Of a stretch of DNA of 64,000 bases, positions 4,954 through 9,314 are shown one piece after another (position 1 is the first letter of the stretch; each line of letters starts with the position of its first letter). The stretch is from SAR86 cluster bacterium (GTDB lineage: Bacteria; Pseudomonadota; Gammaproteobacteria; Magnimaribacterales; Magnimaribacteraceae), in the NCBI GenBank assembly GCA_022447065.1, contig JAKUUM010000006.1, positions 761 through 64,760 on the forward strand, read 5' to 3'. A program made the translations under genes and the position numbers. The notes below the pieces were generated by a model. The model did no database searches, was not told the origin of the DNA, and saw only the letters and a list, made by a program, of their open reading frames with translations.

Positions 4954-6066
4954 ATGAAGTACCTGCTTTCAGAAAAGTCTCTTCTAACTAATTTTAAAGG
5001 AAATTTAGGAGAGGATGATTACAGAGAACCTTTATCTTTTCTATTGGATTCTCTTAACCAAGAAGCCAAATTGAATCTAATAGGAAAATTTGCATTAAGG
5101 TACCAAATTTCCAACCATCTGAAGATCAGATCTAAAATATTTGAGTTTATAAATAACAAAGACTTAGAAAGGCCTGCCAAACCGGTTTTTGTTATTGGCC
5201 TTCCTAGATCTGGAACTACATATTTATTCAATTTATTAAGTTTAGATCAAAGCCACCGTAGCCCTTTGGTTTGGGAAATGTTTTTCCCTTTCCCATTAGT
5301 TCAGAAAGGTACAAGTCAACACAAATGGCGTATTAGAAAAACAAATTTATTAATGGCTTTCCAAAGACTAATAATGCCTGATTTAGACCCCGTGCACCCC
5401 ATTCAATCAACTGACCCGGAAGAAAGCCTTTTAGTAACTACTTTGAGTTTAAAAAGTATTCTTTACTCGTATATGGCTAGAGTTCCTAGTTATGAAGAAT
5501 ACTTAAAAAATACTGATCATACTTCTGCAATTCTCTGGCTTTCACGCTTTCTACAGGTTTTGGAGAGTTCTAACAGGCCTAAAAGATGGTTACTAAAAGA
5601 TCCTACTCATATTGGACATTTACCTGAAATATTGTCTATTTATCCTGAAGCATGTTTCATCCAAATTCATAGGGATCCTTTAGAAAGTATCCCTTCTATA
5701 TGTAGCCTTACAGAAAAGACTAGGTCTCCTTTTACAAAAAATCTGGATAAAAAAGAAATAGGAAAGAGAACTTTAGCTTATTGGGAAGATGCTTTAGCTA
5801 AAGGAGAGAAAGAAAGGAATAAGATTAATAAGAGTCAGTTTTTTGATGTGAAATTTGAAGAATTTATTAACCAGCCATTAGAGCAGATTAGATTAATTTA
5901 CTCTCACTTAGGTTTTAATCTTGAAGAAAAAACAGAGAGAAGCATGATCAATTATGTTGAAGAGTTTGAAGAAGAAGAAAAAATTAAACATTCATATGGG
6001 TTAAATGAATTTGGCTTGAGCGAAGAATCAGTTCAAAATGCTCTTTCTAAATACCTCAAATTTTAG
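4954..6066 (+). CDS. Sulfotransferase family protein (PAPS-dependent type)
   Basis: 370 aa with a 5'-phosphosulfate-binding-like loop GLPRSGTTYL and a downstream IHRDPLESIPS (3'-phosphate-binding-like) segment. Confidence 0.7.
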   Translation: MKYLLSEKSLLTNFKGNLGEDDYREPLSFLLDSLNQEAKLNLIGKFALRYQISNHLKIRSKIFEFINNKDLERPAKPVFVIGLPRSGTTYLFNLLSLDQSHRSPLVWEMFFPFPLVQKGTSQHKWRIRKTNLLMAFQRLIMPDLDPVHPIQSTDPEESLLVTTLSLKSILYSYMARVPSYEEYLKNTDHTSAILWLSRFLQVLESSNRPKRWLLKDPTHIGHLPEILSIYPEACFIQIHRDPLESIPSICSLTEKTRSPFTKNLDKKEIGKRTLAYWEDALAKGEKERNKINKSQFFDVKFEEFINQPLEQIRLIYSHLGFNLEEKTERSMINYVEEFEEEEKIKHSYGLNEFGLSEESVQNALSKYLKF

Positions 6067-6097
6067 TTATTAGTTAAATAGGACTTAAGAATTTAAG

Positions 6098-6508
6098 ATG
6101 AAAATATTAATAATGGGCCTACCTGGTAGCGGTAAAACTTACCTTGCTCAAAGACTTCAACCTCTCCTTGGTGCAGCCTGGTTCAATGCAGATAAAGTTA
6201 GAGAAATGGCATATGACTGGGATTTTAGTCCGGAAGGAAGAACCAGACAGAGCTTAAGAATGAAGGCTTTGGCAGATTTTGAATCTAAAAATAAGAGGGT
6301 AGTTATCTGTGACTTTATTTGTCCGACGGCAGAAACTAGGAAGTTGTTTGATCCTGATAAAGTTGTTTGGCTTGATACTATAGAAGAAGGGCGTTTTGAA
6401 GATACAAATGCTATGTTTGAAAAACCAAAAAAATTTGATTTTAGAGTTACAGAATGGAACGATAAAAATCATATCAATATAGCAGCTGAGATAAAGCAAG
6501 ATGTTTGA
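6098..6508 (+). CDS. Small P-loop kinase, adenylyl-sulfate (APS) kinase-like
   Basis: 136 aa with Walker A GLPGSGKT. By-eye colinearity with CysC blocks: LDGDNVR vs FNADKVR, DLGFS..DR..N.RR vs DWDFSPEGRTRQSLR, FISP....R vs FICPTAETR, FTGID..YE.P vs FEDTNAMFEKP. The RDPKGLYKKA lid segment is missing. Confidence 0.5.
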   Translation: MKILIMGLPGSGKTYLAQRLQPLLGAAWFNADKVREMAYDWDFSPEGRTRQSLRMKALADFESKNKRVVICDFICPTAETRKLFDPDKVVWLDTIEEGRFEDTNAMFEKPKKFDFRVTEWNDKNHINIAAEIKQDV

Positions 6509-6893
6509 TAGGAAGAAACCTACTGTTCAACTATTAGGCAGATGGCAACCTTGGCATGATGGTCATCAAGAATTGTTTAAAAGAGCTCTCCAAAAAACAG
6601 GTCAAGTCATCATTCAAGTAAGAGATGTTCAAGGAGTATCTGCAGGGATGGGTCACGATGATAACCCTTTCGATTGGGATCAAGTCTGTAACAACATCTC
6701 TGAGGGCTTAGCTAAAGATGGATACAAGAGAGGAATTGAGTACGAAATTATGTTAGTTCCTAACATCGTCAACATTACCTTTGGAAGAGGTGTTGGGTAC
6801 GTTTTTGAAGAGGAATCTTTCGAAGAAATTATTGAGGATATTAGTGCCACTAAAATAAGAAAGAAGATGAGAGAGAGCGGGGATCTCAAATAA
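6501..6893 (+). CDS. Cytidylyltransferase-superfamily nucleotidyltransferase, NadM/archaeal-NMNAT-like (short form)
   Basis: 130 aa. GRWQPWHDGH matches the GRFQPxHxGH (HxGH) motif and ISATKIR matches the ISGTxIR motif. Overlaps the upstream kinase gene by 8 nt. Confidence 0.55.
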   Translation: MFDRKKPTVQLLGRWQPWHDGHQELFKRALQKTGQVIIQVRDVQGVSAGMGHDDNPFDWDQVCNNISEGLAKDGYKRGIEYEIMLVPNIVNITFGRGVGYVFEEESFEEIIEDISATKIRKKMRESGDLK

Positions 6894-6903
6894 AATAATT
6901 TAA

Positions 6904-7860
6904 ATGAAGATTTGTATTAGCGAATTTACTTTTAATTCTTTCAAAGATACTTTCGATGAAGCCCTGAGTGAAGATGAAATCTTATTGCTTAACAGAGAGG
7001 GAAAATTGTCTCAAGGAACCGGTGTCCCAGAAGTTATTTTTGTTTCTTATGAGATTATGTTCAAAATGCTCAAAGACGACCTTTACAATAATAATTTCAT
7101 TAGATTAGTTGACGGATGTAAATTTATTCAAGCAAGTTGGGCCGGAATTGAAAGTAAAGCTGCGCAGGAATTGATAAAACGCTGTGGCCTCTACTCTCAT
7201 GGTGGGGGAATTCATGCGATTACGATAGCAACCTATGTTTTTGCTCAAATGCTTCGAAAAGTAAAAGATATTGATGCGCATATAGCTCTCCAGAAAAATA
7301 AAGAATGGAGGCAGATGACTTCTGTAGGGGAGTTAACCGATATGGTTCTTGGAATTGCAGGTTATGGAGGCATTGGTCAAGAGGTAGCAAGATTAGGAAA
7401 AGCTTTTCGAATGGAGATTTTGGCAACAAAGCGTACTCCAGTTTCATCCGATTATTTAGATAGGCTTTATAAACCTTCAGACCTAAATGAAATGCTGGGC
7501 CTTTGTGATTTTGTTGTTGATTGCTTGCCGGTAACCAATGAAACCTTAGGAACCTTTTCTTTAGATAAATTCAAAGTTATGAAACCATCTTCCATGTTTA
7601 TAAATGTGGGAAGAGGGGAAACAGTTATTGAAGAAGATCTTCATACAGCTTTACTATCTGGAGAAATTGAATGTGCTGCACTGGACGTAACAGACCCAGA
7701 GCCTTTAGATGAGAATTCACCTTTGTGGAATTTAGAAAATTGTTTTATAACTCCTCATGATTCTGCTTGGGGTCCAAGAGCACCTGACAGAGCTGTAGAA
7801 GTATTTTTGTCAAACCTAGAACGATATAAAAGAGGCGAGAAATTACATAATCTAGCCTAA
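6904..7860 (+). CDS. D-isomer-specific 2-hydroxyacid dehydrogenase, NAD-binding
   Basis: 318 aa with dinucleotide motif GIAGYGGIGQEVARLG, NVGRGE, and an acid/His catalytic region near ITPHDS. Confidence 0.75.
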   Translation: MKICISEFTFNSFKDTFDEALSEDEILLLNREGKLSQGTGVPEVIFVSYEIMFKMLKDDLYNNNFIRLVDGCKFIQASWAGIESKAAQELIKRCGLYSHGGGIHAITIATYVFAQMLRKVKDIDAHIALQKNKEWRQMTSVGELTDMVLGIAGYGGIGQEVARLGKAFRMEILATKRTPVSSDYLDRLYKPSDLNEMLGLCDFVVDCLPVTNETLGTFSLDKFKVMKPSSMFINVGRGETVIEEDLHTALLSGEIECAALDVTDPEPLDENSPLWNLENCFITPHDSAWGPRAPDRAVEVFLSNLERYKRGEKLHNLA

Positions 7861-7888
7861 AAAAAGGCCGCTTAGCGGCCTTTTTTTT
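7857..7888. terminator. Bidirectional rho-independent terminator between convergent genes
   Basis: An A-run, then stem GGCCGC (7866-7871), loop TTA, stem GCGGCC (7875-7880), then a T8 run (7881-7888). It lies between the stop at 7860 and the stop of the minus-strand gene at 7887-7889. Confidence 0.75.
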
Positions 7889-9314
7889 AACCTTCGTAAC
7901 CTACAACGGCTTTGGTTTCTAGAAACTCTTCAAAACCAAAAGGTCCCCATTCCCTGCCATTGCCTGACTGCTTGTAACCACCAAAAGGTGCTGTAAAGTC
8001 AGCTTGGGCACCGTTGATTGCGATGCTACCTGCTCTGATTCTATTTGCTATTTTCTTAGCATGTTCTGTTTCTCCAGATACGTAACCGTATAGACCGTAG
8101 TCGGTGTCATTGGCAATCCTTACCGCTTCTTCTTCGTCTTTATAAGGAAGAATTGCTAGCACTGGTCCAAAGATCTCTTCTCTTGCAATTGTCATATCAT
8201 TATTAACATTTGCAAATACTGTAGGTCTTACATAGTAACCCGCATTTAATCCGTCAGGTTTTCCAGGTCCTCCGGTAACAAGTTCAGCTCCTTCTGCTAT
8301 TCCTTTTTCAATCAAGCCTTGAATTTTGTTGAACTGGACTTCACTAACCACAGGTCCTATCGAAGTATCTTCACTAAAGGGGTCACCAACTTTAGTAGCT
8401 TCGGCAGCCTTTTTAGCTATTTCTTTTGCTTCATCGTGACGTCCTTCAGGGACTAGCATTCTAGTAGGTGCATTACAAGATTGTCCGCTATTTAAAAAAC
8501 AATGCCTAGTTCCACCTTCTATTGCAGATTGAAAATCTGCGTCATCTAGAATTATGTTAGCTGATTTTCCCCCTAGCTCTTGAGCGACTCTTTTAACTGT
8601 ATCAGCTGCTCCTTTAGCAACACGGATTCCAGCTCTAGTGGATCCAGTAAATGACATCATGTCTATCCCTGGATGGGAAGACATCGCTTCACCAACGGTA
8701 GGACCATCACCATTTACCAAATTGAAAACTCCAGCAGGAACTCCTGCAGCATCCATTACTTCAGCAAAAAGGATTGCATTTAACGGAGCTATTTCTGTAG
8801 GCTTTAATATCATCGTGCATCCTGCAGCTAAAGCTGGCGCAACTTTGCAGGAAATTTGATTTATTGGCCAGTTCCAAGGAGTGATCATACCAACTACTCC
8901 AATAGGTTCTTTTCTGATGACAGTTTTGCCATGAGTTTCTTCCCACTCATAGTTTTGAAGGATTTCTATTGCTTGAGCAAAATGTCCTAGACCCGTAGCT
9001 GCTTGTGCAGCTTTTGATAAAGACAAAGGCGCACCCATCTCCTTAGAAATAGTCTCTGCAACTTCATCATATCTAGATTGATAAATCTCAACAATTTTGC
9101 CTAGCAAAGCTAAACGTTCTTCCACTGAAGTTTGGCTGAAAGAATCAAATGCCTCTCGGGCTGCTGCAACAGCTTTATCAACATCTGCAGGACTCCCCAA
9201 GGCAATTTGCGCTATTACTTCTTCATTTGAAGGGTTGATGACATCAAAAGAATTCACTCCTTCTGCTGGATCCACCCATTCTCCATTTATATAAAACTGA
9301 TGATAAGTCTTCAT
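7887..9314 (-). CDS. NAD(P)-dependent aldehyde dehydrogenase
   Basis: 475 aa. ELGGKS (catalytic Glu motif) and FLNSGQSCNAPTR (catalytic Cys motif). Confidence 0.85.
   Translation of the reverse strand: MKTYHQFYINGEWVDPAEGVNSFDVINPSNEEVIAQIALGSPADVDKAVAAAREAFDSFSQTSVEERLALLGKIVEIYQSRYDEVAETISKEMGAPLSLSKAAQAATGLGHFAQAIEILQNYEWEETHGKTVIRKEPIGVVGMITPWNWPINQISCKVAPALAAGCTMILKPTEIAPLNAILFAEVMDAAGVPAGVFNLVNGDGPTVGEAMSSHPGIDMMSFTGSTRAGIRVAKGAADTVKRVAQELGGKSANIILDDADFQSAIEGGTRHCFLNSGQSCNAPTRMLVPEGRHDEAKEIAKKAAEATKVGDPFSEDTSIGPVVSEVQFNKIQGLIEKGIAEGAELVTGGPGKPDGLNAGYYVRPTVFANVNNDMTIAREEIFGPVLAILPYKDEEEAVRIANDTDYGLYGYVSGETEHAKKIANRIRAGSIAINGAQADFTAPFGGYKQSGNGREWGPFGFEEFLETKAVVGYEG

Follow-up and report, generated by a model that had tools for sequence, protein, structure and literature searches.

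The question raised by this locus is what two very small enzymes, a kinase and a nucleotidyltransferase encoded side by side next to a sulfotransferase, might act upon. An earlier note had offered two readings: a minimal sulfate-activation or PAPS-related module that feeds the sulfotransferase, or a split NadR-like salvage pair lying beside it by chance. The window, a 64,000-nucleotide stretch from a SAR86 cluster bacterium, contains four co-directional open reading frames between 4954 and 7860, all on the + strand:

ST, 4954-6066, +: PAPS-type sulfotransferase, 370 aa (PF13469, 1.2e-45; PF00685, 3.2e-6)
KIN, 6098-6508, +: lid-less miniature APS kinase, 136 aa (PF01583, model fold, invariant residues)
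NT, 6501-6893, +: 130-aa HxGH nucleotidyltransferase, derived from NadM-type NMNATs; putative ATP sulfurylase analogue, a role suggested by context
KIN/NT overlap, 6501-6508, +: 8 nt, ATGTTTGA, the ATG of NT lying within the last codons and stop region of KIN
DH, 6904-7860, +: D-isomer-specific 2-hydroxyacid dehydrogenase, 318 aa (PF02826, 7.2e-47)

Gene order and the flanking genes

The tight spacing of the four genes and the 8-nt overlap, both described in the earlier note, are borne out by the sequence. ST and KIN are separated by 31 nt and NT and DH by 10 nt, no terminator-like site was found between the four genes, and the KIN/NT overlap is read here as translational coupling. The geometry of this overlap is kept across SAR86 families, in all SAR86 loci examined, and it is common to most genome and viral loci. 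In SAR86 family f1, every locus examined conserves ST, KIN, NT and DH together with a convergent aldehyde dehydrogenase gene. Because this order is kept in every f1 locus, and the overlap geometry across families, the four genes have not come together by chance, and the suggestion that the sulfotransferase adjoins the pair fortuitously finds no support.

ST scores 156.8 bits against PF13469 (cut-off 27) in a Pfam profile search, and its translation contains both the 5'-phosphosulfate loop, GLPRSGTTYL (PRSGTT), and the 3'-phosphate motif, HRDPLES; it thus has the profile match and the two motifs that define a PAPS-dependent sulfotransferase. ST is the genome's only PF13469 match; the f1 loci examined all carry it upstream of KIN-NT, and it is presumed to consume the PAPS that the pair would supply. 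DH matches NF041369 at 1.9e-45, far under the cut-off of that model. It is found downstream of NT in f1 alone among SAR86 families, and was absent from beside KIN-NT in the loci examined from families f91 and f93, Alphaproteobacteria and phages; since it accompanies the pair in one SAR86 family only, its grouping with KIN and NT into one functional unit is unsupported.

A lid-less APS kinase and a shortened nucleotidyltransferase

KIN is a member of the APS-kinase family by profile, by fold and by its intact catalytic and APS-binding residues. It scores 30.1 bits against PF01583 (APS_kinase; cut-off 21.1), the match covering the N-terminal half only, and 21.5 bits against the NCBIfam equivalog TIGR00455, for which the cut-off is 138.7. 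Profile searches might have assigned it to some other family, but a KIN family profile compared with solved structures retrieves approximately 25 APS kinases at E-values of 4e-15 to 8e-7, while the next kinase family appears only at >5e-5. The best PDB matches of its AlphaFold model (pLDDT 95.2) are likewise APS kinases, with TM-scores (query) of 0.78-0.86 over the whole protein.

The colinearity with CysC blocks that had been noticed by eye is upheld by these searches, and the motifs quoted for it (GLPGSGKT, FNADKVR, FICP and FEKP) are all present. Scored over 74 homologues, the invariant residues are G7, L8, G12, K13, D32, R35, F43, R48, Q51, R54, F73 and P76. GLPGSGKT, at residues 7-14, is a Walker A P-loop, GxxGxGK(S/T). 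FNADKVR corresponds to the LDGDxxR motif, with its first Asp replaced (N30-A31) and with D32 and R35 invariant; their counterparts in human PAPSS1 are D89 and R92, within LDGDNIR. DFSPEGRTRQ corresponds to the APS-binding block GFSxEDRxEN, in which F43 and R48 are invariant and Q51 replaces Asn, and FICP is the FISP motif, with F73 and P76 invariant.

In canonical APS kinases a mobile lid, RDxKGLYKKAR, helps to close the active site. The earlier note had KIN without some 20 aa at RDPKGLYKKA, and alignment with four canonical CysC sequences confirms a deletion of approximately 20-27 aa around RDPKGLYKKAR; KIN is also without a 5-aa segment, a 4-aa segment and the N-terminal extension. SAR11 homologues of KIN carry an unrelated insert where the lid would be. 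The missing lid sits uneasily with the function that we propose below.

For NT, Pfam and NCBIfam matches are sub-threshold only, to PF01467 and to the archaeal NMNAT model TIGR01527 (27 bits, cut-off 181.2). Among solved structures it comes nearest to archaeal NMNATs, which a profile of 7 sequences (A1) matches at E 1.6e-8 and one of 70 (A2) at 1.3e-7. The two motifs attributed to it, GRFQPxHxGH and ISxTxIR, are there as GRWQPWHDGH (residues 13-22) and ISATKIR (114-120), invariant or nearly so; G13, R14, P17, H19, H22, R41, P87, G95, R96, V98, G99, Y100, I114 and R120 are invariant, and position 94 is nearly always aromatic. The conserved R14, H19, H22 and R120 correspond to R11, H19 and R136 of the M. 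thermautotrophicum NMNAT, residues addressed by the mutant structures 1m8f/1m8g, 1m8k and 1m8j. NT therefore has the NadM signature, GRxQPxHxGH with ISxTxxR, but it does not match NadM over its full length: HMM and Foldseek alignments with NMNATs end at about residue 83-88, only residues about 8-88 align by profile, some 83 residues of the model (pLDDT 89.4) superpose on NMNAT/PPAT, and the NMN-binding segment after strand 4 goes unmatched. By sequence and model, NT descends from NadM-type NMNATs, having kept the ATP-handling motifs and lost the NMN-binding part. With NadM enzymes (1f9a, 1hyb, 4yp7; TIGR01527) it shares both motifs, an NPF motif and the first three strand-helix units; it differs in being approximately 40-50 residues shorter, in having a loop with an invariant PN...GR(G/D)VGY in place of the post-strand-4 segment, and in its contexts, all of which are sulfur-related and none NAD-related. 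Its length of 130 aa, previously considered anomalous, is indeed short against NadM NMNATs (168-181 aa in the PDB), but it is normal for the HxGH superfamily, where the TagD chain 2b7l has 132 aa.

The canonical ATP sulfurylase Sat (PF01747; 8a8g, 1i2d, and a PK-PUA-Sat fusion in genome G401) also belongs to the HxGH superfamily and catalyses the reaction that we propose for NT. The order of motifs is colinear (HxxH ... GRD-type loop ... ISG(T/S)xxR), the G401 Sat having FHTRNPAHGVHEH, IIGRDHTG and ISGSDVR where NT has GRWQPWHDGH, GRGVGY and ISATKIR, and the GRD-type loops may be equivalent. However, NT has no significant sequence similarity to Sat (E 0.086; 12.7 bits, cut-off 24.3), the HxGH stretch alone matching and QxRNPxHxxH being absent; it is a single 130-residue domain without the N-terminal PUA-like domain, and ATP sulfurylase ranks only 39th among its Foldseek matches (TM 0.41), which include HldC and TagD. 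CysD (PF01507) was not found among its Pfam matches at E up to 1. In sequence and fold NT is nearest to NMN adenylyltransferases and resembles ATP sulfurylases at the superfamily level only, which tells against our proposal.

Genomic context and displacement of CysD-CysN/C

Elsewhere in this genome, profile search found no Sat (PF01747), and CysD and CysH were not found, the best PF01507 match being a 448-aa ORF at E 0.004. Neither CysN nor AprAB was found in the genome, and KIN is its sole APS-kinase-like match, with no other CysC. A bona fide CysQ is present (252.9 bits on TIGR01331, cut-off 228.8). The genome consequently has a PAPS consumer (ST) and a PAP recycler (CysQ), and no known source of PAPS. 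Other pathways that combine a kinase with an adenylyltransferase are already covered, since NadD, CoaD, HldE, RibF and CoaE are all present.

Across 201 genomes of the SAR86 order, NT and sulfotransferases of PF13469 have the same family distribution: NT occurs in 35/46 genomes of f1, 67/74 of f91, 0/50 of f92 and 2/30 of f93, and PF13469 in 45/46, 72/74, 0/50 and 2/30 respectively. This co-occurrence, which the earlier note had made a touchstone of its sulfate reading, therefore extends family by family, but the genomes are related rather than independent and co-distribution at this level reflects few evolutionary events. CysD occurs in four of the 201 genomes (G524, G412, G466 and G547), all of them NT-negative, and in 0/105 of those with NT. 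Genus g215 runs against the proposal, in that KIN, NT, Sat and CysD were not found in its three genomes (83-94% complete), though sulfotransferases, including an ST ortholog, are present. Both G401 and one single-cell genome of SAR116 contain a canonical Sat alongside NT, so that exclusion between NT and ATP sulfurylase is not absolute; this too is unfavourable to the proposal.

At least two independent pairs of lineages show CysD-CysN/C in precisely the slot of the chromosome where relatives carry KIN-NT. In genus g221, the order in G432 is ahcY, 2OG oxygenase, KIN, NT, DUF2061, CysQ, sulfotransferase, and that in G412 is ahcY, CysD, CysN/C, DUF2061, CysQ. In family f91, G586 has uvrC, pgsA, one gene (a cytidylyltransferase-like/cupin protein), KIN, NT, Wzz, and G466 has uvrC, pgsA, CysD, CysN/C, Ugd, Wzz, sulfotransferase; G524 and G547 carry CysD-CysN/C at the same place as G466. 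KIN and NT are genetically coupled or fused, and they replace CysD-CysN/C both in position and in phyletic pattern.

Fusion is widespread. KIN and NT are joined in the phage family phrog_10255, which includes gp35 of Xylella phage Sano, and in many proteins of 245-290 aa; in P0166, NT is joined to an APS kinase of canonical type and full length (PF01583, 5.7e-63), and NT-CysC fusions of approximately 310 aa make up at least 120 clusters, with many ocean proteins among them. Unfused copies lie in similar company: the order CysQ-KIN-NT is seen in alphaproteobacterial single-cell genomes, in SAR11 the neighbours of KIN-NT are AprA, AprB and an AprM-like gene, and a single SAR116 cluster holds NT, aprMBA and canonical CysC. 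Cytophagales MAGs have a lone NT and a CysC-CysQ operon, and no Sat or CysD was found in them. DUF2061 accompanies KIN-NT in phages, as it does in G432; it is no general marker of sulfate activation (0/30 loci in other Pseudomonadota), which lends the proposal no help.

A candidate sulfate-activation pair

We propose, with a probability of roughly three in four, that NT is an NMNAT-derived analogue of ATP sulfurylase which forms a sulfate-activation module with the miniature APS kinase KIN. NT would adenylylate sulfate in the ATP sulfurylase reaction (ATP + sulfate <-> APS + PPi), KIN, despite having no lid of the usual kind, would turn APS into PAPS by phosphorylating its 3'-OH, ST would use PAPS to sulfate an acceptor, and the CysQ of the genome would clear the by-product PAP. 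Where the pair lies beside aprBA in SAR11, the NT reaction may proceed towards ATP. For catalysis by NT, the displacement of CysD-CysN/C, the fusions and the genomic context offer indirect support; sulfate would be its second substrate, bound by the invariant GR(G/D)VGY loop, and ST would be the consumer of the PAPS. The earlier note's first reading, a minimal module feeding the sulfotransferase, is favoured by the lack of any other ATP sulfurylase or APS kinase, by the shared slot with CysD-CysN/C and the exclusion of CysD, by fusions of NT with KIN and with CysC, and by cysQ, aprBA and sulfotransferase neighbours.

Its second reading, in which KIN would phosphorylate nicotinamide riboside and NT adenylylate NMN, draws on the closeness of NT to NadM-type NMNATs, its nearest characterised relatives, on the shared GRxQPxHxGH and ISxTxIR motifs and the near-invariant aromatic at position 94, and on the existence of NAD-restoring genes in phages. 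We reject it as highly improbable: KIN is of APS-kinase type, with no ribosylnicotinamide kinase or NadR among its matches listed, NT lacks the NMN-binding segment and falls far below the NMNAT cut-off, NadD is already present, and the genes that recurrently adjoin the pair or are fused with its members are all sulfur genes (sulfotransferase, CysQ, AprBA, canonical CysC, or CysDN/C in the slot). NadR chains themselves match the NT profile at E 0.23-3.1 only, and NadR 6gzo ranks 38th among its fold matches (TM 0.45). We regard it as equally improbable that the pair activates a phosphorylated sugar or polyol for the synthesis of surface polysaccharide, in the manner of HldE or TagD-type pathways. 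The pair does lie at the edge of O-antigen/capsule-type clusters (Wzz, Ugd, epimerases, flippase) in f91 and f93, and HldC and TagD resemble NT in fold, but the kinase is not a sugar kinase, the alternative occupant of the same clusters is CysD-CysN/C with sulfotransferases, which points to polysaccharide sulfation, and the aprBA and cysQ contexts in Alphaproteobacteria are without polysaccharide genes.

A less remote, though still improbable, alternative accepts KIN as an APS kinase, takes APS from another source, and gives NT some other APS- or adenylate-linked reaction: that of an APS:phosphate adenylyltransferase (ADP sulfurylase), ATP-forming breakdown of APS only, or adenylylation of some other small anion, for example selenate, sulfite or a phosphonate. 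The position of NT beside aprBA in SAR11 and SAR116 would suit this, AprBA being itself able to make APS from sulfite and AMP, as would a canonical Sat alongside NT in G401 and G604 and the want of any specific similarity between NT and Sat. Yet no AprAB or other source of APS was found in this SAR86 genome, the pair replaces in situ the CysD-CysN/C that makes APS from sulfate, HxGH enzymes characteristically take an NTP and release PPi, and neither Sat nor CysD was found in the Cytophagales MAGs that combine CysC-CysQ with a lone NT.

The proposed sulfate-activation pair would parallel two known systems. Bifunctional PAPS synthases (metazoan PAPSS1/2; fungal and Aquifex Sat-CysC; 1x6v, 1i2d, 2gks) likewise couple or fuse an APS-making adenylyltransferase to an APS kinase; their kinase half is homologous to KIN, and the natural NT-CysC and KIN-NT fusions mirror their architecture. 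They differ in an adenylyltransferase of approximately 350-400 residues rather than 130, with the PF01747 match, PUA-like domain and QxRNP that NT, of NMNAT-type descent, does not have, and in a kinase with lid and N-terminal extension. The heterodimeric, GTP-coupled CysD/CysN system of Proteobacteria, with CysC, has the same slot and phyletic place within SAR86, and the same neighbours (DUF2061, CysQ, sulfotransferases, polysaccharide genes). NT has no relationship to CysD, a PAPS-reductase-like ATP pyrophosphatase, or to CysN, a GTPase, and gives no sign of GTP coupling.

SAR11 and SAR86, which rank with the most abundant bacteria of the sea, are textbook cases of lost sulfate assimilation, and our proposal addresses what becomes of APS in such cells and where their PAPS comes from. 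Cultured SAR11 have cysC, cysQ and aprA, no sat and mostly no cysD/N (PMC5069961), ATP sulfurylase is missing from most SAR11 (PMC10356861), and SAR11/SAR86 are listed with orphan 'cysC', cysQ and aprBA and without ATP sulfurylase (PMC5069961, PMC10356861). We found no paper describing KIN-NT as a sulfate-activation pair. On balance NT is probably a third class of ATP sulfurylase, of independent, NMNAT-derived origin and approximately 130 residues, which with the lid-less kinase would form the sulfate-activation or APS-turnover system of SAR11, SAR86, SAR116 relatives and hundreds of their phages, and, in SAR11, would fill the place of the 'missing Sat' downstream of AprBA. If so, these cells could make PAPS for sulfated lipids, polysaccharides and metabolites without sulfate assimilation, SAR11 could draw ATP from sulfite oxidation via APS, and a new marker would be needed where annotation pipelines call sulfur pathways 'incomplete'. 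NT would then also illustrate clearly how an enzyme can exchange one substrate for another, here NMN for sulfate, by shedding a binding domain, and KIN-NT would be a very common auxiliary gene pair of marine phages. In coding length the pair takes up approximately 0.8 kb (793 nt here), against approximately 2.8 kb for CysD and CysN/C.

The conserved gene pair

Our ORF listing bears out the four co-directional genes that the earlier note had described at this locus, together with the 8-nt overlap between its kinase and nucleotidyltransferase genes (ATGTTTGA):

4954-6066, + strand: ST, a sulfotransferase of 370 aa (PF13469, 1.2e-45)
6098-6508, + strand: KIN, a lid-less APS-kinase-like protein of 136 aa that passes the Pfam APS_kinase threshold by its N-terminal half only
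6501-6893, + strand: NT, an HxGH nucleotidyltransferase of 130 aa with sub-threshold matches only (archaeal NMNAT and cytidylyltransferase-like models)
6904-7860, + strand: DH, a D-isomer 2-hydroxyacid dehydrogenase of 318 aa (7.2e-47)

The remaining intergenic gaps are 31 nt and 10 nt, and no terminator-like sites were found between the four genes. The block and a convergent aldehyde dehydrogenase gene are kept in all loci examined of the same SAR86 family (f1), and the KIN-NT pair, with an identical overlap but without the rest of the block, is kept amid other neighbours in a second SAR86 family. The observation is therefore real and non-random. The compact cluster of the earlier note holds for one family, but the unit kept across families is the KIN-NT pair and not the four genes; DH lies beside the pair in one SAR86 family only.

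The aldehyde dehydrogenase gene (7887-9314, - strand) is 85-96% identical across all f1 loci, far above ST (44-70%) and DH (60-82%). At two loci of family f91 (L045, 8925-10028; L046, 6647-7798) the gene directly 5' of KIN-NT encodes a protein of 367-383 aa without a Pfam match, and its stop overlaps the KIN start.

KIN and NT as enzymes

A profile of KIN built from 74 homologues matched about 25 solved APS kinases before anything else (E 4e-15 to 8e-7), the next kinase family having E above 5e-5, and the AlphaFold model (pLDDT 95.2) superposes over its whole length on APS kinases with TM up to 0.86. The residues that are invariant among SAR86, alphaproteobacterial and viral homologues (the P-loop, D32, R35, F43, R48, Q51, R54, F73 and P76) line up with the APS-kinase blocks LDGDxxR, GFSxEDRxEN and FISP, as seen in human PAPSS1 among others. 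Besides the lid (RDPKGLYKKAR and its flanks), KIN has lost the N-terminal extension and two short stretches. Taken together, profile, fold, invariant residues and deletions therefore make KIN very probably a minimal, lid-less APS kinase; this confirms the colinearity with CysC, the canonical APS kinase, and the missing lid that had been noticed by eye. SAR11-type KIN (L119, 9514-10002; other Pelagibacteraceae loci, L097 and L113) is longer, at about 161-163 aa, and has in exactly the canonical lid position a charged, unrelated insert of about 27 residues.

Among solved structures NT is closest to NMN adenylyltransferases of the NadM type (two profiles gave E 1.6e-8 and 1.3e-7), but the profile alignment stops near residue 88, and the structural model (pLDDT 89.4) superposes on NMNAT, PPAT, HldC and TagD over about 83 residues only. 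The ATP-handling residues G13, R14, P17, H19, H22, I114 and R120 are invariant, S115, A116 and T117 nearly so; R41, P87 and a family-specific loop, G95-R96-x-V98-G99-Y100, are invariant too. Given this ATP-handling set and the limits of alignment and fold, NT is an HxGH nucleotidyltransferase in which the machinery for adenylyl transfer survives but the region that in its relatives binds NMN has been replaced. NT failed membership tests for NMNAT and for the known ATP sulfurylases Sat (PF01747) and CysD. Profile searches of the PDB gave no direct link to Sat, and among the Foldseek matches an ATP sulfurylase appears no higher than rank 39. The order of motifs is nevertheless colinear between NT (HxGH ... 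GR(G/D)VGY ... ISATxIR) and the Sat of genome G401 (HxxH ... GRDHxG ... ISGxxxR), which is only suggestive.

Genomic context in SAR86 and other lineages

The genome holding the window (1.55 Mb, 93% complete) encodes a single PAPS-type sulfotransferase, ST, which bears PRSGTT and RDP motifs, and a bona fide CysQ that exceeds the TIGR01331 cut-off. Sat, CysD, CysH, AprAB and any APS kinase besides KIN were not found there. Enzymes to consume PAPS, recycle PAP and phosphorylate APS are then present, yet no source of APS is, which leaves NT, translationally coupled to KIN, as the sole candidate. Since NadD, CoaD, HldE, RibF and CoaE are all present, the other pathways that employ a kinase and an adenylyltransferase are already served.

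Among 201 sampled genomes of the order, the family distribution of NT matches that of PF13469 sulfotransferases: NT occurs in 35/46, 67/74, 0/50 and 2/30 genomes of families f1, f91, f92 and f93, and the sulfotransferases in 45/46, 72/74, 0/50 and 2/30. Canonical CysD is confined to four genomes of four different genera, all without NT, and occurs in 0/105 NT-positive genomes; Sat occurs once in the sample. Five additional NT-positive SAR86 genomes have neither Sat nor CysD.

Gene order indicates replacement in place. Genome G432 has ahcY, a 2OG oxygenase, KIN, NT, DUF2061, CysQ and a sulfotransferase, where G412, of the same genus, has ahcY, CysD, CysN/C (a CysN-CysC fusion), DUF2061 and CysQ. 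G586 has uvrC, pgsA, one cytidylyltransferase-like/cupin gene, KIN, NT and Wzz, where G466, the one sampled member of its genus that lacks NT, has uvrC, pgsA, CysD, CysN/C, Ugd, Wzz and a sulfotransferase; CysD-CysN/C likewise follows uvrC-pgsA in G524 and G547. KIN-NT and CysD-CysN/C have thus displaced one another in situ in two independent settings, one within a genus and one in another family. The site 3' of uvrC-pgsA in these last four genomes (L043, L294, L295 and L297) is a conserved hot spot occupied by either KIN-NT or CysD-CysN/C, with Wzz/Ugd/epimerase polysaccharide genes and small sulfotransferases after them, which suggests sulfated surface polysaccharides in SAR86; in G524 it additionally carries a TauE/SafE gene.

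Beyond SAR86, KIN and NT form one chain in phages of Xylella, Xanthomonas and Stenotrophomonas (phrog_10255) and in many proteins of 245-290 aa. In a protein family of about 310 aa (at least 120 clusters, ocean metagenomes) NT is joined to a canonical APS kinase that is full-length and retains the lid. One alphaproteobacterial single-cell-genome lineage has CysQ-KIN-NT, in Pelagibacteraceae the pair adjoins aprA, aprB and an aprM-like gene, a SAR116 genome combines NT, aprMBA and canonical CysC in a single cluster, and small MAGs of Cytophagales carry NT on its own plus a CysC-CysQ operon, with no Sat or CysD. These recurrent partners all make, use or clear APS, PAPS or PAP. SAR11 has been reported to carry aprBA, 'cysC' and cysQ and to lack sat and cysDN (PMC5069961, PMC10356861, PMC12636525). 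NT was found in none of 400 genomes sampled phylum-wide, which marks the family as restricted to certain lineages within Pseudomonadota.

On contigs L289-L293 the gene for the NT-CysC fusion always has the same neighbours: a divergent MFS/PTR2 transporter gene, a protein of about 655 aa without Pfam match and a 1660-aa RTX protein (HemolysinCabind). No sulfur link was found for the latter two or for a flanking TPR/2OG oxygenase. A 395-aa metagenomic protein (P0178) joins a DUF4118 membrane domain, mini-KIN and NT. Apparent fusions of NT to chorismate synthase, DHQS and UCH fragments (P0138, P0164, P0154) were disregarded, being probably run-on artefacts of gene calling or assembly. No sulfotransferase was found near KIN-NT in phage contigs, where replication and nucleotide genes surround the pair. 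At viral loci including L196-L197, KdsA-like and KdsB-like genes (judged by eye from their sequences) also lie nearby, as do ThyX, peptide deformylase and a UDP-glucose-dehydrogenase-like gene. Such contigs indicate large AMG-rich marine phages.

DUF2061, a small membrane protein of 67-86 aa, lies directly 5' of NT in 17/80 viral loci and between KIN and NT in 14 (L145, L161, L166, L169, L171, L189, L194, L198, L202, L203, L210, L212, L214, L217), and likewise in one SAR86-like genome (L080). It adjoins NT in G432 and CysN/C in G412 (L048, 7483-7710; L059, 6464-6685). It does not mark sulfate activation in general: it occurs in 62/301 Pseudomonadota genomes, and CysD, CysN/C, CysQ, KIN or NT lay within 1.5 kb in 0/30 Pseudomonadota loci.

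A putative ATP-sulfurylase analogue

We propose that NT is a putative NMNAT-derived analogue of ATP sulfurylase, a reading to which we give a probability of about 75%. NT would form APS and PPi reversibly from ATP and sulfate, KIN would convert APS and ATP to PAPS and ADP, ST, probably the consumer of PAPS, would yield a sulfated product and PAP, and CysQ would cleave PAP to AMP and Pi. APS formation by ATP sulfurylase is strongly unfavourable and the kinase must pull the reaction, a plausible reason for NT and KIN to be so closely coupled or fused. The GR(G/D)VGY loop may bind sulfate, NT may make up for the lid missing from KIN, and beside AprBA in SAR11 it might run in the direction of ATP.

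The earlier note had weighed a sulfate-activation or PAPS module against a NadR-like salvage pair lying beside a sulfotransferase by chance. The NadM-type ancestry of NT is what the salvage pair would predict, but KIN is of APS-kinase type by profile and fold, NT falls below the NMNAT cut-off and NadD is already in the genome, and we reject the salvage reading. A CoA-synthase-like pair of PPAT and dephospho-CoA kinase fares no better: CoaD (a 159-aa ORF) and CoaE (1.2e-63) are present and KIN is not CoaE-type. Sulfate activation is favoured by the genome inventory, the mutual exclusion of CysD and NT, the in-situ displacement and the fusions, and the neighbourhood comparison agrees, NT and sulfotransferases being linked at SAR86 loci as well as in family distribution. 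KIN-NT would represent a known reaction in a new enzyme variant, with high ecological reach; no prior description of the small nucleotidyltransferase was found in the literature searched, which excluded most subscription journals.

Several observations fit this reading poorly. Sulfotransferases, the ST ortholog among them, persist in genus g215, but KIN, NT, Sat and CysD were not found in it, so that its genomes have no recognisable PAPS route; at its loci L055 and L056 a protein of about 400 aa, and not KIN-NT-DH, comes after the ST ortholog. The phage contigs with no sulfotransferase near the pair, the failure of DUF2061 as a sulfur marker and the restriction of DH to one family also sit awkwardly with it. 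NT also occurs together with Sat in the SAR86 genome G401 and in one SAR116 genome. In G401 a pyruvate-kinase barrel, a PUA-like domain and ATP sulfurylase are joined in one 717-aa protein (L296, contig G401:C7, 6451-8604), and a PK-like gene adjoins Sat in a SAR116 genome (L287).
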